Shown: positions 50 through 21,031 of the stretch, piece after piece
How the letters are laid out: each line of letters starts with the position of its first letter
How positions within the stretch are numbered: the stretch's first letter is position 1
From: Acidobacteriota bacterium
GTDB taxonomy: Bacteria > Acidobacteriota > Polarisedimenticolia > Gp22-AA2
Direction of reading: 5' to 3'
Assembly (NCBI GenBank): GCA_043740165.1
Contig: JAYUCR010000397.1
Span: forward strand, 1-21,031
Length of the DNA stretch: 21,031 bases
Translations under genes and position numbers: made by a program
The notes under the pieces: model-generated
Database searches by the model: none
Told to the model about the DNA's origin: nothing
The model's input: only the letters and a program-made list of their open reading frames with translations

Positions 50-3000
50 TCATCGAGCTCCGCCGGGCCCCGGTGACTGCTCCCGTCCGCCAGGATCGAC
101 GGCCTTCTCGCCGCTCAGCGTGTTCAGCCGCTGCTTCAGTTCCGGCTGGTCCGGATTCAATCTGAGGGATTCGCGAAAAGCGCGGACAGCCTCGTCGGGC
201 ATCCCGAGCTTGAGGTCGATCTCCCCGAGGAGCTCCTGAAGTCCGGCCTCGCTCGGAAGGCGCTGGATCGCCGTGCGTATCAGATCCAGCGCCTCGCGCT
301 CACGCGATTGATCGAGGAGCCATCTTCCCAGGTTGAGGTACGCGGGGACGTAGAGCGGATTGATCTGTAATGCGCGGCGCATTTCGCTCTCCCCTTCTTT
401 CGCGTTCCCGCGTTTCAACAGGGCCAGCCCCAGGTTGTGGTGCACGTCGGCATACCCCGGATCCAGGGCAGCCGCCTTGCGGTAGGCGGCGATTTCGTCC
501 TCGGGGCGGCCGAGCCGTCCGAAAACCGCCCCGAGATTGTTGAACGCGGAGGCGTAGGAGGGATCGATGACCGTAGCGCGCTCGAGCTCCTGGCGCGCCT
601 CCTCCAGCCGGCCACCCAGATAGAGCAGCCCTCCGAAATTGGTGCGGACGGCGGCATTGTCCGGGTCGCGGCGAAGGGCATTGCGGAACTGCGTCTCGGC
701 GGCCTTCATGTCGCCGCGATCCTCGTAAACCAGGGCGAGGTTGCTGTAGGAGCCCGCGAAACTGGCGTCGGCGGCGATGGCCCGATGAAACGCCTCGATC
801 GCCGGTTCGATTTGTTTCCGGTTCTTCAGGATGACGCCGATGTTGTTGTAGGCCTCGGCGTAGTCCGGGTCGATCGCGACCACCTTCCGAAATTGCTCCA
901 GCGCCTCGTCGGTCCGCCCCAGCCGGTCAAAGAGGATGCCGAGGCTGTTGCGGGCGTCGGCGAAATTGGGCTCGTATTCCAGCGCGCGCCGGAAGTGCGT
1001 CTCCGCCCCGGCCGTGTCTCCCTGATCGAGCGCCATGTTGCCGAGCAGATTCTCAGCCTCCTTGGAACGGGGCTGCCGCTTCATGTGCTCATCGAGGGCC
1101 CGTGTCGCGGCGGCGTAGTCCTTCTTCTTGTAGTACGCGCGCGCCATGTTCAGGCGGGCGATCGTCAGGTCCTCGGAAGCCGCGACGGCCTTTTCGAACT
1201 CCCCCAGGGCGTCATCGTAGCGGCCCTGGCCGAGCAGGATGGTGCCGCGGTTATTGTGCGTGTTCGCCGTCTCCCCCGCCAGGTACCCGAGAGATCGGAG
1301 TTTTTCGATCCGCTCCGCGTCACCGGCAGCGTCGGGGCTCGCGCCCGACGGCGCCGGGGGGACGCCGCCCGCCGAGGAGCTGGAGCCGGGAGGCATTTCG
1401 GGTGGCGCCGCCTCCGGCCCCGCGGCGACCCTGGCCGGCGCCCCGGTCGCCGCCGGGTTGGCGGGGTTCTCCCATGATGGAATGTAGGCTTCGGGATGCT
1501 CCTTCAGGAATTCCGGGGCGAACGCCTCGGTGATCGGCCGCCCGTCCATGTCCTCGCCCACGGGCAAGCCGTACAGGCGCAACAGGGTGGGGGTGATGTC
1601 GAGCACGGAGGCCTCATCCAGCTCGACCCCGCGCCGGAATTCCGGGCCGTGCAGCACGAGAATCCCGTACTTACGATGCCAGTCCGCCGCGGCCCCGTAC
1701 CCGATGCGCGACTCGGTGAGCGGACGATTTTCGCCGGTCCTGAATCCATGGTCGGAGAGCACCATCACCGTGGTCGGATGGATCCCTTCCAGAAGTCGAC
1801 CCAATGCGGCGTCGGCCTGGACGTAGTATTCATCCACGACCCTCCCGAAGCGCTGCCGGGATTCGGCGTCGATGCCCTGCAGCGGCGGCGGCGCATAGGG
1901 CATGAACAGGTGCGCCGCCGTGTCGGTGCCCTCGAAATAGACCGCGGTGAAGTCGGTGTCATAGCGCGCCTCGAGCGCCAGTGCCACCCTCTCGTAGGTC
2001 CTGCCCGAGGCCAGAAGCGTCTTGAAGTTCTCGACCAGCCGGCTCTGATTTTCCGGCAGCGAGCTCGGATCCGGAGGCATCCGCATGAAGGGCGTCAGAT
2101 CCTGCATCAGGATGTTTTCCGGCGTCACGGTCAGCGATGTCACCAGCGCGTCCGCCTCGGGGGGCGAAACCTTGCCTTCGCGCGCCCCGCCGTCGACGGC
2201 GCGCGCGCCGAACAGCTGGTACGCGACCCGGTCGGAGACCACGAACCCGTTCACCTGCTCGGCGGGATAAGTCGCCCACCACCCGACGATTCCGACCCTC
2301 ACCCCGCGCTCTCCGAGCATGTTCCAGATCGCCTTGACGCGGCGCTGCGTCGCGCTGACCGGGACGCGCTCCCCTTCCCGCTCGGTGTTGGCCACGAAGT
2401 CCAGAATGCCGTGGCGCGCCGGCACCACTCCCGTCGCGATGCTGGTCCAGATGACCGGCGAAAGCATCGGATTGATGCTGCGCAGCCGGGCCCGAACCCC
2501 CTCGTGGACGAGCCGGGCAAGATGCGGCATCCGGCCGCTGCTCATCAACGGGTCGATGATGTTCCAGTCGGCGCCGTCCAGGCCGACGAGGAGCACCTTT
2601 CCCAGGGCGCCCCCGCGCGTCGCCGTCAGGGGGGTCCCGTTGTCGGCCCGGATGCGGACCCCCGGAACCTCGCACGACAGGAGGACCAGCCCCGCCTCCC
2701 GGAAGCGATCCCCCAGGGTGCGGCTGAGCGCCGCCTGGAGCTCCTCGGTGTGCGTCCCGGAGATATCCGCATAGCTGGCCGCCGCCAGGGCGCCACGGAT
2801 CGCCTCCAGGACCCATCGGCTGATGGCGTCGCCTTCCAGGCGCGGTCCGAGGGTCCGGTGCACCTCGATCAGCCGCTCCGGATCGACGCGGTAGCGCAGG
2901 GTCACCGAGGTTTCAACTTCGGTCCCTTCGCGCGTGGCGAGCGGCCGGCGGGAGCCGCCCAGGGAAATATCGAGGGTCGCTGAACGGACGGCGTAGAGGC

Positions 3001-3199
3001 TGATCCGGAACAGCCCCGGCGGGGCGAGGTGCCATCCCTCGGGCACGATGCGCGGCGAGATGAGGCCGAGCCGTGAATCCAGAACGGCAGCCCGGCCGTC
3101 GTCTTCGGTGCGGCGCAGGCCGGCTCCGAGCCAGACGCATAAAAACAGCAGGAGGACGCCGGCGGCCATACGGCGTCGTCTCAGCACCTCCGGTGTCAT
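50..3199 (-). CDS. Large membrane-anchored multidomain protein: N-terminal TM helix, SPFH/band-7-like segment, alkaline-phosphatase-superfamily (type I phosphodiesterase/nucleotide pyrophosphatase-like) domain, Pro/Ala/Ser/Gly-rich linker and about 11 C-terminal TPR repeats
   Basis: 1049-aa ORF. The N-terminus has a hydrophobic helix (AAGVLLLFLCVWLGAGL). VTLRYRVDPERLIEVHRTLG and the following segment resemble SPFH domains. GKVLLVGLDGADW...SPVIWTSIATGVVPARHGILDF...VLSDHGF match metal- and nucleophile-site motifs of the Phosphodiest/AP superfamily. A low-complexity PAATGAPARVAAGPEAAPPEMPPGSSSSAGGVPPAPSGASP linker follows. Repeated 34-aa A..Y.N.G......G....A...F..A...DP units (TPR) cover roughly nt 95-1260. 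No clear SD precedes the 3199 ATG; an alternative start is Met11. Confidence 0.75.
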   Translation of the reverse strand: MTPEVLRRRRMAAGVLLLFLCVWLGAGLRRTEDDGRAAVLDSRLGLISPRIVPEGWHLAPPGLFRISLYAVRSATLDISLGGSRRPLATREGTEVETSVTLRYRVDPERLIEVHRTLGPRLEGDAISRWVLEAIRGALAAASYADISGTHTEELQAALSRTLGDRFREAGLVLLSCEVPGVRIRADNGTPLTATRGGALGKVLLVGLDGADWNIIDPLMSSGRMPHLARLVHEGVRARLRSINPMLSPVIWTSIATGVVPARHGILDFVANTEREGERVPVSATQRRVKAIWNMLGERGVRVGIVGWWATYPAEQVNGFVVSDRVAYQLFGARAVDGGAREGKVSPPEADALVTSLTVTPENILMQDLTPFMRMPPDPSSLPENQSRLVENFKTLLASGRTYERVALALEARYDTDFTAVYFEGTDTAAHLFMPYAPPPLQGIDAESRQRFGRVVDEYYVQADAALGRLLEGIHPTTVMVLSDHGFRTGENRPLTESRIGYGAAADWHRKYGILVLHGPEFRRGVELDEASVLDITPTLLRLYGLPVGEDMDGRPITEAFAPEFLKEHPEAYIPSWENPANPAATGAPARVAAGPEAAPPEMPPGSSSSAGGVPPAPSGASPDAAGDAERIEKLRSLGYLAGETANTHNNRGTILLGQGRYDDALGEFEKAVAASEDLTIARLNMARAYYKKKDYAAATRALDEHMKRQPRSKEAENLLGNMALDQGDTAGAETHFRRALEYEPNFADARNSLGILFDRLGRTDEALEQFRKVVAIDPDYAEAYNNIGVILKNRKQIEPAIEAFHRAIAADASFAGSYSNLALVYEDRGDMKAAETQFRNALRRDPDNAAVRTNFGGLLYLGGRLEEARQELERATVIDPSYASAFNNLGAVFGRLGRPEDEIAAYRKAAALDPGYADVHHNLGLALLKRGNAKEGESEMRRALQINPLYVPAYLNLGRWLLDQSREREALDLIRTAIQRLPSEAGLQELLGEIDLKLGMPDEAVRAFRESLRLNPDQPELKQRLNTLSGEKAVDPGGREQSPGPGGAR

Positions 3200-3224
3200 G
3201 GGCCGGGTGGCGAGCGGAACCCGA

Positions 3225-5671
<2,447 letters not shown>

Positions 5672-12421: not shown

Positions 12422-14956
12422 CTACTGCGCGACGATATTCAGCAGCTTTCCCGGCAGGTAGATGATCTTGCGAATCGACTTGCCCGCGAGGTGCGCCTCG
12501 ACCCGCTGGTCGCCGCGCGCCAGGGCCACCGCCTCGGATTCGCCCGTCGACGCCGGCACGCGCAGGTGACCGCGGAGCCGCCCGTTGACCTGGACCACGA
12601 CCTCGACCAGGTCCTCGCGCATCCAGGCGGGATCGGCGGCCGGCCAGGGCTGCGCCATCGCCTCCCCCTTCCCCCCGAGGCCCTCCCAGATCGCCTCCGA
12701 GATGTGCGGTGCCAGCGGCTGCAGCAGGAGCGCCATGCTCATGCCGGCTTCCTTGATGTAGGGATCGTCCCCCGGCGCGGCGTCGCGGGCGAAGTCCTGG
12801 GTGGCGTTCAGGAGCTCCATCACCGAGGAGACCGGGGTGTTGAGGTGCAGCCGCTTCTCGATGTCGGAGGTCACGCGTTCGATCGTCTGATGGACCTTGC
12901 GCCGCAGGGCCGCCCGGCGCGCATCGTCCGCCCCGTCGAGCCCGGAGGGCAGGGAGGCCGCCGCGAGCGCCGCCGCGCGCGGCGCCAGCAGCCGCCACAC
13001 CTTCTCGAGGAACCGGAAGCACCCCTCGACCCCTTTCTCGTTCCACTCCAGATCCTTCTCCGGCGGCGCGGCGAACAGGGTGAACAGGCGCGTCGTGTCG
13101 GCGCCGTAGCGCCGGATCATCTCGTCAGGGTCGACGACGTTCCCCTTCGACTTCGACATCGCCGTCCCCCCCTTCAGCACCATCCCCTGGCAGAGGAGGC
13201 GGGTCACCGGCTCGTCGACGCGGACCAGGCCCAGGTCGCGCAGCACCTTGGTGAAGAAGCGGCAATAAATAAGATGAAGCGTCGCGTGGGTGATCCCTCC
13301 GACATACAGATCGATGGGGAACCAGGAAGCGACGATCTCGGGGTCGAACGGCGCCTGGTCGTTGCGCGGATCGCAGTACCGGTAGAAGTACCAGGCGGAG
13401 TCGAAGAAAGTGTCCATGGTATCGGTCTCGCGACGCGCCGCGCTGCCGCAGCGCGGACAGGTCGCCCGCACGAACGTCTCGGAGAGGGCCAGGGGCGATC
13501 CGCCCTGCCCGGTGAGCGGCACGTCCTCCGGGAGCAGCACCGGCAGGTCCCTGTCGGGCACCGGAACCACACCACAGCGCTCGCAGTAGACCACCGGGAT
13601 CGGGGTCCCCCAGTAACGCTGCCGCGAGATCCCCCAGTCGAGCAGGCGGAACTGCACCGTGGTGCGGGCGAACCCGCCCTCCTCGCCGGCCCGCGCCATC
13701 GCCGCGCGCGCTTCGGCCGAAGACAGGCCGGTGAAGCGCCCCGAATCGACGAGCACGCCGTCGGCGGTCATCGCCGCGAGGGGCGCTCCCCGCTCCGCCG
13801 GCGACGGAGAGGACTCCGGCGCTGGGGCAGCGGGCGCCTGCTCGCGGATCACGAACCGGATCGGCAGGCCGTAGCGCCGGGCGAATTCGAAATCGCGCTC
13901 GTCGTGCGCCGGGACCGCCATGATGGCGCCGGTGCCGTACCCCATCAGCACGAAGTTCCCGGCGTATACGGGTAAGCGCCCGCCGCTGCAGGGATTCCGG
14001 ACGACAAGCCCACTGTCGACCCCTTCCTTCTCCGCCAGATCGGCGCCGGGCCTGGTGACATCGCGCGCCGCGCCGACCCGCCGCCGGAATTCCTCCAGAC
14101 GAATCCCGGCGGGGCTCGCTGGCTCGACGCGCCGCAACACCGGGTGCTCCGGGGCGACCACGCAGAAGGTCGCGCCGAAGATGGTGTCGAGACGGGTGGT
14201 GAAAATCTCCAGCGCCTCCCCGGTCTCCGCGGACCCGTCGAGAATCGGGAAGCGCACCACGGCCCCAACGCTTCGGCCAATCCAGTTCTGCTGCATCAGC
14301 CGGACCTTCTCCGGCCAGCCCGGCAGCCGATCCAGGCCGGCGAGCAACTCCTCCGAGTAGGCGGAGATGCGCAGGAACCACTGCTCCAGCTCGCGGCGCG
14401 ACACGACCGAATCGCAGCGCCAGCAGCGCCCCGCCTCGACCTGCTCGTTCGCCAGGACGGTCTGGCAGGAGTCGCACCAGTTCACGTCCCGCCGGCTGCG
14501 GTAGGCCAGACCCCGCTCCAGCATCCGGAGAAAAAACCACTGGTTCCAGCGGTAGTAGTCGGGCCGGTGGGCGGCGATCTCGCGCGTCCAATCGTAGGAG
14601 AAGCCGAGCCGGCGGAGCTGTTCCCCCATGACGGCGATGTTCTCGTTGGTCCACTTCGCGGGAGGAATGCCGCGCTGAATGGCGGCGTTCTCCGCCGGCA
14701 TCCCGAACGAATCCCACCCCATCGGATGGAGCACCTGGTCGCCGCGCATCCGGCGGAACCGGGCCACCGCGTCCCCGATGGCGTAGTTGCGCACGTGCCC
14801 CATGTGCAGCCGTCCCGATGGATACGGCAGCATCTCGAGGCAATAGAACTTCCGCCCGGCGGCGCGCGCCGGCGCGCGAAACCCCCCGGCCGCGCGCCAG
14901 CGCTCCTGCCAGGCGCGCTCGATGGCGTCGAACTGATCGCGGTAATCGCCCTGCAT
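12422..14956 (-). CDS. leuS: Leucyl-tRNA synthetase
   Basis: Class-I aaRS motifs are present: PYPSGRLHMGHVRNY (HIGH) and VLKGGTAMSKSKGNVV (KMSKS), plus the Zn-binding CDSC...CWRC and CPRC motifs. The track ORF begins at 15034. However, Met27 (ATG 14956, MQGDYRDQFDAIERAWQERW) aligns with the E. coli LeuS N-terminus MQEQYRPEEIESKVQLHW, so 14956 is taken as the start. Confidence 0.95.
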   Translation of the reverse strand: MQGDYRDQFDAIERAWQERWRAAGGFRAPARAAGRKFYCLEMLPYPSGRLHMGHVRNYAIGDAVARFRRMRGDQVLHPMGWDSFGMPAENAAIQRGIPPAKWTNENIAVMGEQLRRLGFSYDWTREIAAHRPDYYRWNQWFFLRMLERGLAYRSRRDVNWCDSCQTVLANEQVEAGRCWRCDSVVSRRELEQWFLRISAYSEELLAGLDRLPGWPEKVRLMQQNWIGRSVGAVVRFPILDGSAETGEALEIFTTRLDTIFGATFCVVAPEHPVLRRVEPASPAGIRLEEFRRRVGAARDVTRPGADLAEKEGVDSGLVVRNPCSGGRLPVYAGNFVLMGYGTGAIMAVPAHDERDFEFARRYGLPIRFVIREQAPAAPAPESSPSPAERGAPLAAMTADGVLVDSGRFTGLSSAEARAAMARAGEEGGFARTTVQFRLLDWGISRQRYWGTPIPVVYCERCGVVPVPDRDLPVLLPEDVPLTGQGGSPLALSETFVRATCPRCGSAARRETDTMDTFFDSAWYFYRYCDPRNDQAPFDPEIVASWFPIDLYVGGITHATLHLIYCRFFTKVLRDLGLVRVDEPVTRLLCQGMVLKGGTAMSKSKGNVVDPDEMIRRYGADTTRLFTLFAAPPEKDLEWNEKGVEGCFRFLEKVWRLLAPRAAALAAASLPSGLDGADDARRAALRRKVHQTIERVTSDIEKRLHLNTPVSSVMELLNATQDFARDAAPGDDPYIKEAGMSMALLLQPLAPHISEAIWEGLGGKGEAMAQPWPAADPAWMREDLVEVVVQVNGRLRGHLRVPASTGESEAVALARGDQRVEAHLAGKSIRKIIYLPGKLLNIVAQ

Positions 14957-14967
14957 AGAGGCGGATT

Positions 14968-15164
14968 CTAGGAGCCTGTCCGAGTATTCGCAAGGGCCGC
15001 GTTCGCCGCGCCGCGGCGAACCCGGAGGGCGCATGGGGATTGCGGCCCCATGCTTCGTGGCTCCGCCTCATCAAGTGCACCCACATCGATTCCTCCTCGC
15101 GTCTCGCCTGGGACACGCAAGCCCCATGCGCGCGACCCATGCCAATACTCGGACCGGCTCCTAG
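14968..15164. repeat. Long-range inverted repeat (21 bp, 20/21 complementary) enclosing nested GC-rich hairpins in the leuS / RiPP-operon divergent intergenic region
   Basis: The left arm ctaggagcctgtccgagtatt (14968-14988) is the reverse complement of the right arm aatactcggaccggctcctag (15144-15164), with one mismatch. Inside the repeat are a palindrome gttcgccgcg/cgcggcgaac (15001-15010 / 15012-15021) and a hairpin gcatgggg-attgcgg-ccccatgc (15031-15053). Extra copies of ccccatgc occur at 15122-15129 and cccatgc at 15136-15142. Confidence 0.7.
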
Positions 15165-15220
15165 TCGATTTCAGAATTGCAAGCGGGGCCTTCCGCCTTC
15201 CTTCCACCCCCCGCGTCACC

Positions 15221-15248
15221 TTGCGAGTCTGTCATCGGAACCTATATT
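15221..15248 (+). promoter_or_regulatory. Candidate sigma70-type promoter for the plus-strand operon (TTGCGA-N16-TATATT)
   Basis: TTGCGA (15221-15226) matches TTGACA at 4/6. A 16-nt spacer follows, then TATATT (15243-15248), matching TATAAT at 5/6. The site is about 40 nt upstream of the first gene, in the least GC-rich part of the window. It is followed by the SD-like GGGGAGAGGGG (15275-15285). Confidence 0.35.
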
Positions 15249-15285
15249 CCCTCCGCTCAAGACGCGGAAATAACCGGGGAGAGGG

Positions 15286-16428
15286 GTGATGCAGGAAGCG
15301 ACGAGGCCGGTAGACATAGAGGAAGACCCCGGACCGTCACAGGGGCTCGACCTCATTGGCCTGCTCGCGGCGCCGGGGCCGATGGGGGCCGCGCTCCGGT
15401 CGGCGATGCGCGATCTCCCCCCCTCCGCGGTCCCGGGACTCGTGGAGCGGCTGGTCTACCACCGCATCGACGGCCTGGCCTGGCGCGCCATCGCCGGCCT
15501 TCCGGCGGACGAGATCGACCCCTGGCTCCGCGCCACGCTGCGCCGCCGGCACCAGCAGCGCAGCGCCGCGGTCCTGGCGCAGGGACTGGGGCTCGCCGAG
15601 GTGCTCGATCACCTGACGCGGGCCGGCGTGCCGGTCGCGGTGACGCGCGGGCTGCGGGTCATCGAGTGGATCTACCGTGACACGGGGGCGAGGCCGTTCG
15701 AGGATCACGATCTCCTGGTCCGGCCCGCCGACGAGCCGCTGGCGTGCGCCGTCCTGCAGCGCCTGGGGTACGAGGAACGCGCCCCCCGCCTTTTCCGCCG
15801 CACCACCATCACGCTGGACCTGCACACCGACCCGCTCGGAGCGCGCCGCCGCCCGACGCGCGCGCAGCTCTTCCCGATCGACGTCGAGGCGCTGTTCCGT
15901 GACGCCAGCCCCGGCTGGATCGCCGGCGGCCCGGCGATGATCCTGGCCCCCGAGGACGAGATCCTGCTGCTCGCGCTGCACGTCGTGAAACATTCCTTCG
16001 ATCGCCTGATCCGCACCGCCGACCTGGCGCACCTGGTCGCCGTGCACGGCAACGCCATCTGCTGGGAAAGGGTTCGGGAGCGCGCCGAGGAGGCGCGCGC
16101 CACGCGGCTCCTCGGCCTGGCGTTTGGCGCCGCGACGCCGTTCGGCATCACGGTGCCGGCGGCGGTGCGCCTGCCGGAGCCTTTCGCCGGCCTCGAAGGG
16201 CTGCTGCTCGATCGCGTCCGCGCCTTCCGTCCCCTCCCCTACTGCGGAGAGGTGCTGATGGCGATGGCCGCTCCGCGCTTCCTCGATCGCCTGCGCTACG
16301 TCCTCGATGCGCTCGTCCCGGCGGGCGAGGCGCCGGCGGGCGGCTGGTCGGCGGCGGAGATCCCCCGCCGCAGCGTGATTCTGCTCGACGGCGCCGCGCG
16401 CCGGATGCGTGAAAGGAGACGGGCGTGA
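15286..16428 (+). CDS. Nucleotidyltransferase family protein (NTP_transf_5 / PF14907-like, the type associated with RiPP and HprK-like kinase clusters)
   Basis: 380-aa ORF. It has FEDHDLLVRPAD (the D-x-D nucleotidyltransferase motif in the DIDLLV-like context typical of PF14907) and the downstream helical region LLLALHVVKHSFDRLIRTADLAHL typical of this family. The start is either GTG 15286 or the adjacent ATG 15289, after the GGGGAGAGGGG SD. The stop overlaps the next gene (GTGA). Confidence 0.7.
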   Translation: MMQEATRPVDIEEDPGPSQGLDLIGLLAAPGPMGAALRSAMRDLPPSAVPGLVERLVYHRIDGLAWRAIAGLPADEIDPWLRATLRRRHQQRSAAVLAQGLGLAEVLDHLTRAGVPVAVTRGLRVIEWIYRDTGARPFEDHDLLVRPADEPLACAVLQRLGYEERAPRLFRRTTITLDLHTDPLGARRRPTRAQLFPIDVEALFRDASPGWIAGGPAMILAPEDEILLLALHVVKHSFDRLIRTADLAHLVAVHGNAICWERVRERAEEARATRLLGLAFGAATPFGITVPAAVRLPEPFAGLEGLLLDRVRAFRPLPYCGEVLMAMAAPRFLDRLRYVLDALVPAGEAPAGGWSAAEIPRRSVILLDGAARRMRERRRA

Positions 16429-16730
16429 TCGAACCTGGAACCGCACGTTACATCCCCTCCCCCGACGTGGTGACGCGCAACATCGCCGGCGAGCACCTGC
16501 TGGTGCCGGTGCGCACCGGTGTCGCGCAGATGGACTACCTGTACACCGCCGACGAGGTGGGGAGCGTCATCTTCTCCCTGCTCGACGGGCAGCGCGACGC
16601 GACCGCCATCGGCCGCCATGTCGCGGAGCTGTTCGAGGTCGACGCGGCGCAGGCCACGGCCGACGTGGCGGCCTTCCTCCAGGAGCTGGAACAGGCCGGA
16701 CTGGTCCGCCTGGCCGGGGAGGACCGTTGA
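16425..16730 (+). CDS. PqqD-family protein (stand-alone RiPP recognition element, RRE)
   Basis: 101-aa ORF with the PqqD pattern: VVTRNIAGEHLLVPV.....YLYTADEVGSVIFSLLDGQRDATAIGRHVAELFEVDAAQATADVAAFLQELEQAGLV. The GTG start at 16425 is preceded by AAGGAG and overlaps the upstream stop (GTGA). Its stop overlaps the next start (TTGA). Confidence 0.85.
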   Translation: MIEPGTARYIPSPDVVTRNIAGEHLLVPVRTGVAQMDYLYTADEVGSVIFSLLDGQRDATAIGRHVAELFEVDAAQATADVAAFLQELEQAGLVRLAGEDR

Positions 16731-18031
16731 GCGCCTGCTCCCCGGTCACGTACCAGGAGTTCGGCAAGAGCGTGATGCAGGCATGCGCCGGGGCACGCGT
16801 GCCGCTGTCCGGCTCGTTCGAGCTGACCTTCAAGTGCAACCTGCGCTGCGTGCACTGCTACATCCCGGACTTCTCCGGGCGCGACGAGATGACCACCTCC
16901 GAGGTGCAGCGGATCCTGAGCGAGGCGGCCGATGAGGGATGCCTCTGGATGCTGCTCACCGGCGGCGAGGTCCTGTCGCGCGCCGACTTCCGCGAGATCT
17001 ACCTGCACGCCAAGCGCCTGGGGCTGCTGCTGACCGTGTTCAGCAACGGCACCCTCCTGGACGAACGGATCGCCGATCTGCTGGCCGAGTACCCGCCGCG
17101 GGGTATCGAGATCACCCTCTATGGGATGTCGGACGCGACGTATCTGCGCACCACCGGCTCACCGGGGCGTTTCACGCGGGTCAAGCGGGCGGTCGAGCTG
17201 CTGGCGGAGCGCCGCATCGACCTCACCCTGAAGGCGATCGCGATGGAGGAGCTGCGCGACGAGATCCCGGTCATGCAGGCCTGGGCGGCGTCGATGGGGA
17301 TCCGCTTCCGGTACGACGGCACCATTCACGGCCGGCTCGACGGCTCGCTCAGCCCCACGGCGGCGCGTTCCACCCCGGAGCGGCTGGTGCAGCACGACAT
17401 CAACGACCCGCGGCGGCGCGCCGACTGGATGACCTTCTACCGCGACTACGTCAAGCCGGCGCGCAAGAGCGAGATGCTGATGTCGTGCGGCGCCGGGGTG
17501 CAGAGCTTCCACGTCGACCCCAAGGGGACCCTGCTGTCGTGCGAGGCGCTCAACCTCGACGCCTACGATCTGCGCCGCGGCACGTTCCGGGAAGGCTGGT
17601 ACGGCATCGTCGGCCGCGTGCGCGAGCGCCGCGCGGCGGCCCACAACGTCTGCGCCGGCTGCGAGATCAAAGCCCTCTGCGATCGCTGCCCGGCCACGGC
17701 GCTGCTCGAGACCGGCAGCCCCGACGGCTGGATCCCCTACTACTGCGAAGTGACCCACAGGCGGGCCTCCTTCCTGGAGGCCGAGCTGGGAAACACGGAA
17801 GCCGCGGCGCGCTACATGGCCCACGCCGAGAAGGTGGCCGGCGGGTGGACTCCCGAAGGGGTCATCCTGCCGCGCGCCTCGGCGCTGCGCGCGAGCGCCG
17901 CCCCGGCGGGCGGCTGCGCGTCCGGCGGATGCACCTCGGGCGGGTGCGGCAAGCCTGCCGCGGCCGCCGCCAGTCCCCAGCCGTTGCAGATCGATTTGAA
18001 CCGCAGCAACACGATGGAGAGACAGCGATGA
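16727..18031 (+). CDS. Radical SAM / SPASM-domain peptide-modifying enzyme
   Basis: It has the CX3CX2C cluster motif (FKCNLRCVHCY), the GGE motif (LLTGGEVLSRADF) and TNGTLL-like FSNGTLL. A full SPASM signature is present: C-x12-G-x4-C (CGAGVQSFHVDPKGTLLSC) followed by CAGCEIKALCDRC (CX2CX5CX2C). The track ORF (16409) extends upstream through the PqqD gene in another frame. The likely start is TTG 16727 (GGGGAGGA SD 5-6 nt upstream, TTGA overlap with the PqqD stop). Alternatives are GTG 16772 and ATG 16775. The C-terminus carries a GGCASGGCTSGGCG tail. Confidence 0.88.
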   Translation: MSACSPVTYQEFGKSVMQACAGARVPLSGSFELTFKCNLRCVHCYIPDFSGRDEMTTSEVQRILSEAADEGCLWMLLTGGEVLSRADFREIYLHAKRLGLLLTVFSNGTLLDERIADLLAEYPPRGIEITLYGMSDATYLRTTGSPGRFTRVKRAVELLAERRIDLTLKAIAMEELRDEIPVMQAWAASMGIRFRYDGTIHGRLDGSLSPTAARSTPERLVQHDINDPRRRADWMTFYRDYVKPARKSEMLMSCGAGVQSFHVDPKGTLLSCEALNLDAYDLRRGTFREGWYGIVGRVRERRAAAHNVCAGCEIKALCDRCPATALLETGSPDGWIPYYCEVTHRRASFLEAELGNTEAAARYMAHAEKVAGGWTPEGVILPRASALRASAAPAGGCASGGCTSGGCGKPAAAAASPQPLQIDLNRSNTMERQR

Positions 18032-18219
18032 CACGCAGCCCCGAGAAGCCCGGCGCGCCGGCGCGCCGGTCGTACCACCCGCCGCAGCTGCAGCGGGTCA
18101 GCCTGGTCCCCGACGAAGCCGTTCTCGCCTCCTGCAAGACCGCGACCGTGCAGGGGCCGCTGGGCGCCTCGGCAAAATGCACCGGCACCCCTTCACTCTG
18201 CTCGCACGATGGCTCCTAA
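18028..18219 (+). CDS. Putative RiPP precursor peptide (63 aa): MTRSPEKPGAPARRSYHPPQLQRVSLVPDEAVLASCKTATVQGPLGASAKCTGTPSLCSHDGS
   Basis: This ORF is not listed separately in the track; it is the tail of the 16939-18219 ORF. Its ATG at 18028 overlaps the rSAM stop (ATGA) and is preceded by GGAGAG 7 nt upstream. G or C occupies the third codon position in 55 of 63 codons, as in the neighbouring genes. It fills what would otherwise be a 177-nt gap in an operon of overlapping genes. The N-terminal half is charged and Pro-rich with a YxxPxL motif. The C-terminal half has Cys36, Cys51 and Cys58, many Thr/Ser/Gly, and a terminal Ser. Confidence 0.7.
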   Translation: MTRSPEKPGAPARRSYHPPQLQRVSLVPDEAVLASCKTATVQGPLGASAKCTGTPSLCSHDGS

Positions 18220-19132
18220 CACACCCCGTCCGTTGATCCTGGAGATCGCCGGCATCGGCCTCTCCGTGCGGCCGGCCGAGCCGGGGATCGATCTGGTCAC
18301 CGACGCCGCCCACGAGCCGTTTCTGGCGGAAGGGATCGGCGACGACTGCGCCTCGATCGTCCTGGCGCCGGTGGCCTCCACCCGGCCGCCGCGCACCAAG
18401 GGCCGGACGATCTTCGACACCGGCTGCGTCTGGCGTCTGGAGGAGAGCGGCGACGGGCACCTCCTGACGCTGCGCTCGCCGGTGTTCGGCGCCGACCCGT
18501 ATCTCGCGGTGGAATTCGACGCCCAGTATTCCCGCGGCCAGGGGGAAACGCTCGACGGCGGCCCTCATCTGCTGGGAGCGACCATGCACCCTTTCGTCTA
18601 TCCGTTCGACGAGGTGGTCTTCCTGGCCCGCCTGGCGCGCGGCCGCGGCGTGCTGGTGCATGCCTGCGGTCTCACCTATCGCGGGCGCGGCATCCTGCTG
18701 CTCGGCACCTCGGGCGCCGGCAAGAGCACCTCGGCGCGCCTCTGGTCCGAGCGCCCCGCCGCCCGCGTCCTCTCGGACGATCGCATCGTCATCCGCCGCG
18801 ACGACGAGGGTTATCGCATCTTCGGGACCCCCTGGCACGGGGACGCCGGGCTCGAGTCGCCCGGCTCGGCGCCGCTGTGCGCCGTCTTCATCCTCGAGCA
18901 GGCGCCGCGCAATCGCGTCGTCGAGATGCCTCCCTCGCAGGCGGTGGCCCAGATGATGGTGCGCGCCTTTCCCGCCATGTGGGATCAGGGAGGCCTGGAG
19001 TTCGCGGTGAAGTTTCTGTCGCAGATGACCGAGCGGGTCCCGGTGCGGCGGCTGCAGTTCCTGCCCGAAGCCTCGGCGGTCGATTGCGTGCTCGGGGCGA
19101 TCGATGGGGGGCTCGATGCCGAAGGGGCCTGA
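18209..19132 (+). CDS. HPr kinase/phosphorylase-like P-loop kinase (HprK C-terminal-domain family; RiPP-associated kinase type)
   Basis: 307-aa ORF. VLVHACGLTYRGRGILLLGTSGAGKSTSARLWSE....VLSDDRIVI matches the HprK C-terminal-domain pattern H...v...g.GvLi.G.SG.GKS..a..L......lvsDD.v. The ATG at 18209 lies inside the last codons of the precursor ORF (11-nt overlap). Confidence 0.8.
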   Translation: MAPNTPRPLILEIAGIGLSVRPAEPGIDLVTDAAHEPFLAEGIGDDCASIVLAPVASTRPPRTKGRTIFDTGCVWRLEESGDGHLLTLRSPVFGADPYLAVEFDAQYSRGQGETLDGGPHLLGATMHPFVYPFDEVVFLARLARGRGVLVHACGLTYRGRGILLLGTSGAGKSTSARLWSERPAARVLSDDRIVIRRDDEGYRIFGTPWHGDAGLESPGSAPLCAVFILEQAPRNRVVEMPPSQAVAQMMVRAFPAMWDQGGLEFAVKFLSQMTERVPVRRLQFLPEASAVDCVLGAIDGGLDAEGA

Positions 19133-19136
19133 AGAA

Positions 19137-21031
19137 GTGAACGGGGGCTCTCCCGGGTCGAGCCCGGCCCCGCCGGTCCTCCTGGCGGAGCGCCAGGGAG
19201 TGGTGTTCGTCGCCACGTCACAAAGCGTCGACGGCCTGCGCGTCCCGCGGCGTTACTGGGGGACCGACATGGGTGTCGTGGCGATCCCGGCGCACGAGGA
19301 GGAGGTGCGGGCCTGCGAGCTGCTCCCCCCTTCGGATGCCGGCGCCTGGCCGCGCGCCCTGCCGCGCCCCGACCTGCTCTCTCCGGTTCTGTCGCGTCTC
19401 CTCAGCGTCGAGCACATGGAGATGAGTCTCTATCCGGGGCGCGACGGCCTGAAAGCGATGCTGATCGCCCCGGACGGGCAGCGCCTGCCGTTCCCGATCG
19501 CCCCCAAGGATGCGCTCGGCCTCCTGGCCGCGGTCTTCCACCATGCGCCGCGCGGTGTCGTCGCCCTGAACGCGAGCCGCCCCGGGCGGCTGCTCCTCGC
19601 CGTCCAGCCGGCCGCCCGGCCGCACGAGTACCGCGTGCGGCTCGCCGGCGCCGTGGCCACACCGAAGCCGGGCAGCCTGCCCGAGATTGGCGCCTCGATG
19701 TCGCTCCTCGAAATCCTGAACGAATCGCTCGATCGTCCCTCGGGATTGATGCTGGTCGCCGGGGGCAGCTCCTCGGGGCGCAGCACGACCCTGGACCTTC
19801 TGGCCGGATCGCTCCTGGCGCGCGGCCGGAGCGGCGGCCGGATCGGCCCGCGGCGCGAGACCGCGAACCCGAACCTCCCCTGGCTCGCCGACGCCGTCAC
19901 CGACTGGCCGTTTCCGGAGAGCCTCAAGGAGGCGGCGCCCGACTTCGTCATGATGGAGCGGCTGGAAGGACTGCGGCACCTGCTGCTCGCCGCCCGCCTC
20001 GCCGGGACGGGGACGCTGGTGCTGGCCGGCGCGCCCCCCGCCGAGCCGCAGGCGCTGGTGCGCCGCGTGGCGCGCGAGCTCGAGGCCGGCGCCGGACCCG
20101 AGGTGCCGGTGATGGTGCTGGCGCAGTCCCTGCTGCGCACCGTCTGCCGCGGATGCACCACGTGGACGGCGATCCCGGCGGCGCGCGCGTTGCGCCTCGG
20201 GTTCCACCGCTGGGATCTGGAGGAGATGGAGCGCCGCGGCGGGCTCGCCGTCCCGGCCCGCAAAGGCTGCCCCACCTGTGCCGGGACCGGCATCGCCGGG
20301 CTCACGGGGGTGTTCAGCTATGCCGGGTCGGACGGCCTCTCGAGCGCGCTGCCGACGCTGCGCGAAGAAGGCTGGCGCAAGGTTGTCGAAGGCATCGCCG
20401 ACGTCGATGACGTCGCGGCCCTGCCGGGTGGGCATCACGCCATGCGTTCCCTGCGCGAGATCGCCGTGCTGGCCGGCACGACGCCGATGGCGCGCCATGA
20501 GCCCGACGGCGTCGCCACCGCGGCGTCGGCCCGTCCGGTCGCCGCGCGACCCGCCGCGGCCCCGCCGGTCAAGTCCGGCGCCGTCGCGCGCGGCTCCTCC
20601 TCCGCCGACGTCGACATCCTCGTGGCGCTGTTGCGCGCCGCGCGCGCCGGGCAGCCGCCGCAGCCGGAGCGCATGGCCGAGCTGGCGCGCGGCGTCGCCG
20701 GCCGGGCGATGCAGGGCGAGCTCGACACCCAGCTCCAGCCGCCGCCCGCCGGCTACCACATGGGGCGCCGGGCGGTGAACACGGCGGTCCTGGCGGTGCG
20801 GATCGTGGCGGCGCTGGGTCAGACCGAGGACGCTCCGGCGACGGCCACGCTGGCGCTGCTCCATGACATCGGGCTGCTCGAGGCGGGTGTCGATCCGGGG
20901 GCCGAATCGGGCCCTCAACTGAGCGAAGCCGCTCTCGATCCCCAGGGGGCACGGATGCGCCCCGCCACCATGCTGCGCGCGCTTGGCCTTCCCGACGCCG
21001 AGCTGGCGGCCCGGATCGCCGACGCGCAGAC
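19137..21031 (+). CDS. GspE/PilB-like (type II/IV secretion ATPase fold) protein with degenerate catalytic motifs, fused to a C-terminal HD domain; 3' end outside the window
   Basis: I translated this frame by hand; it is open from 18957 to the window end and is absent from the track because it is truncated. The T2SSE-like order is kept. There is an N-terminal GspE-N-like segment (VLLAERQGVVFVATSQSVDGL....GVVAIPAHEEEV). Walker A-like GLMLVAGGSSSGRSTTL stands where GPTGSGKTTTL is expected. Walker B-like PDFVMMERLEG stands for PDVIMVGEIRD. His-box-like TGTLVLAGAP stands for TGHLVLSTLH. LAQSLLRTVCRGC...KGCPTCAGTGIAGLTGVF is the tetracysteine motif. After an Ala/Pro linker comes an HD motif, ATLALLHDIGLL (His-Asp at 20862-20867). 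The start is uncertain: GTG 19137 (4 nt after the kinase stop), GTG 19200 or ATG 19269. Confidence 0.65.
   Translation, partial: MNGGSPGSSPAPPVLLAERQGVVFVATSQSVDGLRVPRRYWGTDMGVVAIPAHEEEVRACELLPPSDAGAWPRALPRPDLLSPVLSRLLSVEHMEMSLYPGRDGLKAMLIAPDGQRLPFPIAPKDALGLLAAVFHHAPRGVVALNASRPGRLLLAVQPAARPHEYRVRLAGAVATPKPGSLPEIGASMSLLEILNESLDRPSGLMLVAGGSSSGRSTTLDLLAGSLLARGRSGGRIGPRRETANPNLPWLADAVTDWPFPESLKEAAPDFVMMERLEGLRHLLLAARLAGTGTLVLAGAPPAEPQALVRRVARELEAGAGPEVPVMVLAQSLLRTVCRGCTTWTAIPAARALRLGFHRWDLEEMERRGGLAVPARKGCPTCAGTGIAGLTGVFSYAGSDGLSSALPTLREEGWRKVVEGIADVDDVAALPGGHHAMRSLREIAVLAGTTPMARHEPDGVATAASARPVAARPAAAPPVKSGAVARGSSSADVDILVALLRAARAGQPPQPERMAELARGVAGRAMQGELDTQLQPPPAGYHMGRRAVNTAVLAVRIVAALGQTEDAPATATLALLHDIGLLEAGVDPGAESGPQLSEAALDPQGARMRPATMLRALGLPDAELAARIADAQ

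Follow-up and report, generated by a model that had tools for sequence, protein, structure and literature searches.

What role is left to a protein that joins the fold of a secretion-motor ATPase to that of a second-messenger phosphodiesterase, when both have lost their catalytic residues? The question is raised by the last gene of a 21,031-nucleotide stretch of DNA from an Acidobacteriota bacterium (contig JAYUCR010000397.1, assembly GCA_043740165.1), the whole of which is called the window here. This gene, the target of our analysis, is cut by the end of the window and follows a group of genes of the type found in cassettes for peptides made on the ribosome and modified after translation (RiPPs). 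A previous annotation (the original prediction) had described it as a degenerate GspE/PilB-like ATPase fold fused to an HD domain and had offered several roles, from nucleotide-sensing scaffold to phosphate-removing partner of the kinase encoded upstream. Our results favor a non-catalytic, nucleotide-binding signaling or scaffold protein that would serve exopolysaccharide export, a reading to which we give a probability of roughly 50%.

Architecture of the full-length protein

The truncated reading frame could be completed with P0001, a protein of 781 aa from public metagenomes that is 100% identical across the 631 translated window residues. Its last 143 aa, located beyond the window, contain the remainder of the HD-type domain (up to about residue 700) and a C-terminal beta-barrel of the Tudor/SH3-like type (about 705 to 771). 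The complete protein has four parts, namely an N2D plus RecA-like core of the GspE/PilB type, a disordered linker, a domain of HD-GYP lineage and the barrel (coordinates in Table 1). In front of the core there is a small beta-beta-beta-alpha domain with no Pfam match over residues 21 to 66, which is kept in the family and, as seen in the alignment, missing from distant relatives that combine T2SSE and HD-GYP domains. Column counts below refer to 60 aligned relatives; the census of the Walker A motif covered 81 homologues with a recognizable P-loop, and 85 homologues were scanned for GYP and HHE motifs. Conservation is lowest in the linker (0.42) and highest in the C-terminal barrel together with the helix before it (mean majority fraction 0.81), with the HD core at 0.60.

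Could such a protein simply be a decaying remnant without function? Both catalytic centers are degenerate, as detailed below, which would fit. However, there are about 85 intact full-length homologues of 770 to 790 aa, with identities down to 42 to 45%, that preserve invariant cysteines and the 81%-conserved barrel, and the AlphaFold (AF2) model of the target reaches a mean predicted local distance difference test score (pLDDT) of 85. In a window with a GC content of ca. 70%, the codon-position GC values of the forward frame between 19029 and the end of the window are 0.78/0.58/0.90, as expected for a real gene. Reading the target as a pseudogene or shadow frame was also rejected, the antisense open reading frames at 19218-20918 and 19430-20305 being the ones with the GC pattern of shadow frames. 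The conservation pattern effectively refutes a remnant, the least probable of all the explanations considered here.

A degenerate GspE/PilB core

The similarity of the N-terminal two thirds of the protein to the GspE/PilB ATPases goes well beyond chance. The single sequence reaches 27.4 bits with Pfam PF00437 (T2SSE; cut-off, 24.9), a profile matched by all 60 relatives, and the family profile retrieves from the PDB the Thermus thermophilus PilF (E value of 3e-24) and GspE (2.6e-19). Foldseek with the AlphaFold model finds PilF (5oiu) at 6.5e-18, over ca. 390 PilF/PilB columns that span the N2D and the C-terminal domain. As in the solved GspE, PilB and PilF structures (PDB 1p9w, 4ksr, 5oiu and 5tsh), we found the N2D followed by the RecA-like domain, the P-loop at its place, the tetracysteine Zn subdomain and all motifs in the same order and spacing. 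The four Zn cysteines are invariant (60/60) and align with the CxxC...CxxC of PilF, and the Gly, Ser, Thr and Arg residues of the P-loop are at least 90% conserved.

The catalytic residues, in contrast with those of GspE/PilB/PilF, are replaced. Arg occupies the Walker A Lys position in 59/60 aligned sequences and, in the wider census, in 79 homologues, the other two having Cys and none Lys. Alignments by hidden Markov model to PilF and by MAFFT place Gly, Arg or Ala at the acidic positions of the Asp box. The Glu of the GE(I/M)RD motif aligns to Arg, with Glu or Asp (34 and 26 of 60) one residue earlier, and the two histidines of the His box align to Thr/Cys and Pro/Ala. Judging from these alignments, the replacements are a property of the whole family and not sequencing noise. 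The original prediction had read this degeneracy from a single hand-translated frame, and every motif coordinate that it gave proved correct on re-checking, with the Cys codons in frame.

A working motor that powers secretion of peptide or polysaccharide, with Arg substituting for Lys, would still be in keeping with the conserved fold, Zn site and P-loop glycines and with the acidic residue that follows the hydrophobic Walker B strand in 60/60 members. Nevertheless, the Asp box is gone, as are the canonical Walker B Glu and the two histidines of the His box, and no GspF/PilC platform, GspL/PilM partner or pilin family was found by Pfam among the called neighbors in four loci. The NCBIfam equivalogs TIGR02538 (PilB) and TIGR02533 (GspE) score 39.3 and 35 bits versus cut-offs of 675.65 and 630.25, i.e., about 5% of the required values. 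The target also differs from these ATPases in its fusion to an HD-GYP-type module and in having no N1/MshEN domain (PF05157, T2SSE_N), for which there was no match at E ≤ 0.1 in 60 members; the weak match P0086, a canonical PilB, does carry this domain. We consider a motor very unlikely. With Lys, Asp box, Glu, His box and machine partners all absent, the target falls, by its motifs, outside the functional GspE/PilB ATPases. Its core is better described as a pseudo-ATPase that, given the conservation pattern of the P-loop, has probably retained the binding of a phosphate-bearing ligand. The binder or scaffold role that had been suggested for it seems reasonable with a P-loop under such strong selection.

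A degenerate domain of HD-GYP lineage

An exhaustive profile search showed that hundreds of proteins of 280 to 650 aa match residues ~480 to 775 at 1e-20 to 1e-25, and those checked were HD_5/HD proteins with EHERxDGSGYP motifs. The C-terminus of the family alone, compared by hhalign with 20 HD_5 proteins, gave a probability of 100% and an E value of 3.7e-42 over 274 columns. The closest solved structure to the HD-type domain is the unconventional HD-G'Y'P protein Bd1817 of Bdellovibrio (15.5, with 192 residues aligned), followed by DvhD (11.4), PgpH (10.5), PmGH (10.2), PA4781 (9.3) and an HDOD protein (9.1). Tudor domains match the last ~58 residues with a figure of about 6, and the barrel that they form is also present in canonical HD_5 proteins. 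By homology and fold, the domain belongs to the HD-GYP lineage, and its fusion to the ATPase core is borne out by profiles, hhalign and structures. The original label of HD, HD-GYP or HDOD-like can be narrowed accordingly to HD-GYP/HD_5, the HDOD part being dropped. Pfam matches are weak in the family, with HD in 39/60, HDOD in 27/60 and HD_5 in 0/60 relatives at E ≤ 0.1, and the HDOD profile (PF08668) stays below its curated cut-off. A generic HD or HDOD identity was discarded, as the HDOD match of the window fragment was sub-threshold and full-length P0001 gave T2SSE only, while the family profile and hhalign led to HD-GYP/HD_5.

We took the HD-GYP signature, HHExh(D/N)GxGYP with its ligands, as defined in bioRxiv 10.1101/2021.11.05.467447. 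The RxH motif is lost in the family and in the window protein. HHE is reduced to one His in 33/60 members and is Gln (Q638) in the window protein, DGxGYP is lost in all of them (the aligned segment reads VHxLL...P), and no GYP or HHE motif appeared in the 85 homologues scanned. The Asp of the AD motif is Ser, Ala or Cys in 60/60 (Asp in 0/60; Ser in the window protein). What persists is the HD dyad (H in 56/60, D in 50/60), and the H...HD triad at positions 552, 583 and 584 is complete in 47/60 members and incomplete in 13/60, the window protein being one of the latter. Considering the ligand set known from HD-GYP structures, the residual residues could not form a bi- or trinuclear metal center, and, with the GYP and HHE motifs and the ligand set missing, the sequence is not that expected of an HD-GYP phosphodiesterase (PS51832). 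The loss goes further than in Bd1817 (PDB 3tm8; PMC3188283) and other inactive HD-GYP proteins, since the target has no HHE...GxGYP segment or AD Asp at all instead of lacking only the Tyr, and, unlike Bd1817, it has the C-terminal barrel and the pseudo-ATPase fusion.

An active phosphohydrolase was nonetheless the output proposed for this domain by the original prediction, either stripping off the phosphate or nucleotide that the kinase and nucleotidyltransferase of the cassette have added or hydrolyzing a cyclic dinucleotide. Mononuclear HD enzymes exist, and the triad complete in 47/60 members and the Pfam HD matches in 39/60 would be compatible with one. However, the domain descends from HD-GYP-type proteins and all members lack RxH, HHE, GYP and the AD Asp, the window protein having in addition R552 and Q638. 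Furthermore, the triad is incomplete in 13/60 members, and its residues therefore do not seem to be constrained by a catalytic center, and the nearest solved structure is itself unconventional. These losses make both a phosphohydrolase output and a phosphate- or nucleotide-removing partner of the kinase implausible; we regard enzymatic activity of the domain as quite improbable.

A conserved locus in "Candidatus Polarisedimenticolia"

The sources of the relatives, together with 20 species-level genome matches, are almost all metagenome-assembled genomes of Acidobacteriota, specifically "Candidatus (Ca.) Polarisedimenticolia" (former gp22). The window itself matches a scaffold of the European Nucleotide Archive (L001) with one mismatch in 11.9 kb. 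Four contigs (L014, L024, L027 and L028) carry the labels Verrucomicrobiia, Dongiaceae, Binatia or Cryosericum, yet have a locus and synteny of the Polarisedimenticolia type; they are probably mis-binned or misclassified.

Synteny was established with called genes annotated by Pfam in four loci and a tblastn table over 28 loci. The order is fixed: leuS on the reverse strand, NTP_transf_5, PqqD, radical SAM (rSAM)/SPASM, a 63-aa peptide, an ScmC/HprK-like gene, in some loci a response regulator receiver (Response_reg), the target, and then a Wza-like protein, a Wzc-like tyrosine autokinase, Wzy_C, a Wzx flippase, glycosyltransferases and a methyltransferase. Most start and stop codons overlap. 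The Wza-Wzc-Wzy-Wzx-glycosyltransferase operon lies directly 3' of the target in every sufficiently long locus, beyond the end of our window. Of the 21 Polarisedimenticolia-type loci in which the upstream side of the target is visible, 10 have a CheY-like single-domain receiver as the gene immediately before it; the receiver occurs at L004 9604-10041 and likewise in L009, L010, L012, L013, L016, L017, L020, L022 and L023, as well as in L007 and L008.

The co-occurrence with the rSAM cassette is thus conserved across Polarisedimenticolia loci, and the linkage of the target to the upstream RiPP genes that had been proposed is sustained by this synteny, by tight packing and by the lack of any terminator-like site between the promoter match at 15221-15248 and position 21031. 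The 4-nt gap after the kinase gene applies to one start only, GTG 19137, which has an AAGGGG Shine-Dalgarno-like site 9 nt before it; the start called by the gene finder, ATG 19116, overlaps the upstream stop by 17 nt. With either start the coupling to the upstream gene is tight, and the choice is irrelevant to function because the first ~18 residues show no conservation in the family.

The Wza-like protein (L001 12343-13758) starts with an S24/signal-peptidase-I-like segment (TIGR02228, 2.5e-8). Elsewhere, the S24-like peptidase is a separate gene, located between target and Wza at L006 4281-4793 and after ScmC at L033 10885-11343 and L034 10932-11399, which suggests that the leader peptidase of the cassette became fused to the polysaccharide export protein. 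In two loci, L015 (1247-1865) and L020 (2872-4760), the rSAM gene is apparently missing, in L020 together with PqqD and the peptide; both retain NTP_transf_5, the ScmC-like gene, the target and the exopolysaccharide genes.

Distant relatives and separable modules

Five proteins of 672 to 748 aa (P0100, P0101, P0102, P0105 and P0108) show the whole architecture with T2SSE and HD_5 above their cut-offs; a metagenome scan with an alignment of this T2SSE+HD_5 type returned 4 loci, 2 of them already known. Motifs were read in P0100, P0102, P0105 and P0108. In all four, Arg has already taken the Walker A position, as in the target. The Walker B Glu survives within P-E-I-R/x in most of them (Asp in P0105), and so do part of the His box and the motifs RxH, AD and VHERxSGxGFP-like; P0108 lacks some of these. 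The HD_5 proteins (PF13487) with a barrel, e.g., P0121 and P0133, are homologous to the target over HD domain and barrel and, unlike it, have EHERxDGSGYP. Since both of these groups, which are uncharacterized metagenomic sequences, mostly keep such motifs along with RxH and AD, they may still be enzymes. As far as motifs can tell, the loss would have been stepwise, from canonical HD-GYP through T2SSE+HD_5 proteins with VHERxSGxGFP to the Polarisedimenticolia form.

The surroundings of these relatives vary. P0100 (L006/L029) is followed by a gene for a 170-aa S24-like peptidase and then Wza-Wzc-Wzy-Wzx; on its upstream side there is a divergent GAF-PAS hybrid histidine kinase and, within 10 kb in L029, no peptide cassette. 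P0108 (L008) lies between a receiver and Wza-Wzc-Wzy-Wzx. P0105 (L007) also has a receiver before it and is followed by NTP_transf_5-PqqD-rSAM, and the target-type gene of L031 is followed by NTP_transf_5. Conversely, L033 and L034 have ScmC homologues of 37 to 42% identity in the order PqqD-rSAM-small peptide-ScmC-S24-like peptidase-Peptidase_C25 (-NTP_transf_5), and neither a T2SSE/HD gene nor exopolysaccharide genes are present in these cassettes. These differing contexts make three modules distinguishable: an autonomous peptide cassette, a pair of receiver and PilB-like/HD-GYP protein, and an operon for exopolysaccharide of the Wzx/Wzy type. The second of these, in "Ca. Polarisedimenticolia," sits between ScmC and the peptidase of the cassette, the latter now fused to Wza.

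Two observations concern these autonomous cassettes. The Peptidase_C25-domain proteins at their end are giant, with ~2,000 to 2,300 aa (L033 11340-18278 and L034 11396-17275). The contig of L033 also carries, a few kilobases upstream of its ScmC cassette, a second, lasso-like cluster (178-5398) with NTP_transf_5, a 2OG-Fe oxygenase, an Asn-synthase-like gene, a 54-aa open reading frame, an HprK-like gene and PqqD.

This modularity bears on whether the target could be an accessory of the RiPP-like peptide cassette and not of the polysaccharide machinery. Its P-loop or HD pocket might, for example, retain or detect a peptide intermediate in phosphorylated or nucleotidylated form, or the protein might hand the mature peptide to an export apparatus. 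The target comes directly after the HprK/ScmC-like gene or the receiver in all Polarisedimenticolia loci, and NTP_transf_5-PqqD-rSAM genes directly follow the distant relatives in L007 and L031. The S24-like peptidase, placed after ScmC in autonomous cassettes, is here downstream of the target (fused to Wza), which puts the target within the usual gene order of the cassette. Also, in lasso peptides, HprK-type kinases phosphorylate the C-terminal Ser, which PsmN-type nucleotidyltransferases then glycosylate (PMC6993621), and the C-terminal Ser of the 63-aa peptide is invariant. On the other hand, the cassettes of L033 and L034, from other lineages, do without a T2SSE/HD gene, a T2SSE+HD_5 relative is found at the exopolysaccharide locus of L029 with no cassette in the 10 kb upstream, and L015 and L020 have lost the rSAM gene yet keep the target. 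An accessory of the cassette seems to us possible but doubtful.

Comparison with known systems

Myxococcus xanthus PilB offers the nearest functional parallel. Exopolysaccharide production is controlled by the nucleotide state of this protein and not by its hydrolysis of ATP (PMC5544727), and c-di-GMP and ADP are among its ligands (PMC6957770); the tie of the target to an exopolysaccharide locus is compatible with such a role. However, M. xanthus PilB is a true motor whose motifs are intact, has an MshEN site for c-di-GMP, signals via the Dif pathway and is encoded outside the exopolysaccharide operon. The resemblance would be one of functional analogy and not of membership. In the case of RpfG-type REC-HD-GYP proteins, receiver and HD-GYP-type domain form one signaling unit, as seems to happen here, and inactive members affect exopolysaccharide and enzyme secretion by protein-protein contacts (bioRxiv 10.1101/2021.11.05.467447). 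In our loci, though, the receiver is a separate gene (absent in the lineage of the window), and the pseudo-PilB core stands between receiver and HD-type domain.

No solved structure combining a GspE/PilB core with an HD-GYP-type domain appeared among the PDB profile and structure matches, and our literature search yielded no account of a GspE/PilB-HD-GYP fusion or of such a cassette beside polysaccharide genes. The terms GspE, PilB, T2SSE and ATPase are absent from the text of the census of HD-GYP domain architectures in the same preprint. The original prediction, which knew of no characterized protein of this kind, agrees with these searches. We are dealing with an uncharacterized architecture, made from known domain families and confined to uncultured Acidobacteriota.

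A proposed non-catalytic regulator or scaffold for exopolysaccharide export

Taken together, two degenerate catalytic sites in a conserved fold with a conserved P-loop suggest a binder or scaffold rather than an enzyme, and the strong conservation of P-loop, cysteines and barrel next to a weaker HD core would be the pattern expected of one. The ancestor could have been a receiver-controlled PilB-like/HD-GYP protein of cyclic-dinucleotide signaling, dedicated to an exopolysaccharide locus, that lost both catalytic centers in "Ca. Polarisedimenticolia". Its present role would be that of a nucleotide-binding, non-hydrolyzing and probably oligomeric switch or scaffold. The P-loop, the HD pocket or both would bind a nucleotide or phosphorylated ligand, and the conserved barrel would make the protein contact that gates polysaccharide polymerization or export, with Wzc, Wza or proteins of the cassette as candidate partners. 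The mechanism is plausible in view of the precedents of M. xanthus PilB and of catalytically inactive HD-GYP proteins, which act by binding and protein-protein interaction (bioRxiv 10.1101/2021.11.05.467447).

Several points weigh against this reading. The mechanism is inferred from protein anatomy and genomic context. The lineage of the window has no receiver gene. L023, with a 42%-identical homologue, has the receiver but neither exopolysaccharide genes nor cassette nearby, and L007 and L031 show downstream cassette genes rather than visible exopolysaccharide genes. Owing to the last two loci, the link to exopolysaccharide is inseparable from the link to the peptide system within the class, and the sample of distant relatives is small. 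As for the ligand, c-di-GMP is contacted in PmGH by the GYP motif and by the Lys that follows HD; both are absent from the target, so that binding of c-di-GMP in the canonical mode appears unlikely from its residues. No MshEN/T2SSE_N or PilZ domain was detected in the family either, including the RxxxR...(D/N)xSxxG motif of the latter at its usual spacing.

A bolder extension, which we consider unlikely, makes the target a dedicated checkpoint that would physically couple the maturing of a peptide with thioether bridges and a phosphorylated or glycosylated C-terminal Ser to Wza/Wzc/Wzy export. The PqqD-rSAM-HprK-like-NTP_transf_5 cassette would make the peptide and the P-loop/HD pocket would read its phospho- or nucleotidyl form, resulting in peptide-primed or peptide-gated exopolysaccharide secretion in Acidobacteriota, with the leader peptidase already fused to Wza.

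Other features of the window

The genes upstream of the target form a co-directional block (Table 1). What had been taken for a single rSAM gene of 540 aa (16409-18031) is actually two, a PqqD-family gene in a different frame, with coding-type GC at third codon positions and matches to PF05402 and lasso PqqD proteins, and the rSAM/SPASM gene. The 63-aa peptide gene begins at an ATG preceded by GGAGAGA and overlaps the rSAM stop as ATGA. Its 18 distinct sequences share YxxPxL, the block LVPDEAVLASCK, three nearly invariant Cys and the invariant C-terminal Ser, and it is likely the precursor of the cassette. The HprK-like gene has NCBIfam matches to ScmC (1.4e-9) and HprK_rel_B (1.6e-8), both below cut-off.

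Table 1. Positions of the target, its domains and motifs, and the co-directional upstream features in the window
Feature	Position	Strand	Remarks
Target gene, residues 1-638 of 781-aa P0001	19116..21031	+	Called start ATG 19116; frame runs past window end
Small N-terminal beta-beta-beta-alpha domain, residues 21-66	19176..19313	+	AF2 model; family conservation 0.69
N2D-like domain of GspE/PilB ATPases, residues 85-180	19368..19655	+	Foldseek alignments, AF2 secondary structure
RecA-like C-terminal ATPase-fold domain and Zn-binding subdomain, residues 186-440	19671..20435	+	
Walker A remnant GGSSSGRSTT	19761..19790	+	Glycines and Ser/Thr kept, Lys replaced by Arg
Asp-box position (canonical I-E-D-P-x-E), here GGRIGPRRET	19833..19862	+	Acidic ligands gone; alignment to PilF, MAFFT
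Walker B region APDFVMMERLEG	19935..19970	+	Canonical catalytic Glu position is Arg
His-box remnant TGTLVLAGAP	20007..20036	+	Both histidines lost across family
Tetracysteine Zn motif, CRGC 20145-20156 and CPTC 20268-20279	20145..20279	+	Cys codons 20145, 20154, 20268, 20277
Ala/Pro-rich disordered linker, residues 458-492	20487..20591	+	pLDDT <50 at residues 466-492
Degenerate HD-GYP-type domain, start (residues 493-638 in window)	20592..21031	+	
R552 codon (canonical first metal-binding His)	20769..20771	+	His in 56/60 family members and in canonical HD-GYP proteins
HD dyad H583 D584 within LLHDIGLL (20856-20879)	20862..20867	+	Only canonical metal ligands left in window protein
Sigma-70-like promoter match upstream of block	15221..15248	+	
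NTP_transf_5 nucleotidyltransferase-family gene	15289..16428	+	First of co-directional block
PqqD-family (RiPP recognition element-type) gene	16425..16730	+	Frame differs from long reading frame 16409-18031
Radical SAM/SPASM gene	16727..18031	+	
63-aa peptide gene, candidate precursor	18028..18219	+	YxxPxL leader-like motif, three Cys, C-terminal Ser
HprK-like/ScmC-family gene (the kinase of the original prediction)	18209..19132	+	Pfam ScmC (precomputed)

Between leuS and NTP_transf_5, nested inverted repeats occupy positions 14968-15164, with 34-nt arms of 88% complementarity, 16-nt arms inside them and a hairpin at the center. It is at the left edge of the repeats that L001 and L002 diverge into wholly different upstream genes; to the right, the two differ by only 10 mismatches in 16 kb. 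A mobile or repetitive extragenic palindromic (REP)-like element, a site of recombination or a chimeric assembly could account for this. The repeats had no Rfam match, and Rfam on 14800-21031 gave a chance-level match only. At the other end of the window (50-3199, reverse strand), a 1,049-aa protein joins SPFH/Band-7, a type I phosphodiesterase/nucleotide pyrophosphatase and a long array of tetratricopeptide repeats, an unusual combination.

Significance

If the favored reading is true, the family would be a clear natural "double pseudoenzyme," in which the folds of a secretion motor and of a second-messenger phosphodiesterase have been kept for binding, not catalysis, and both are built into an exopolysaccharide operon of the Wzx/Wzy type. 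The hosts being uncultured soil and sediment Acidobacteriota, practical consequences will stay limited until a tractable host or a recombinant protein can be had. Nucleotide-dependent post-translational control is well known for synthase-dependent polysaccharides such as cellulose, alginate and Pel and, to our knowledge, much less so for Wzx/Wzy/Wzc systems, for which this family would be a candidate to exert it.

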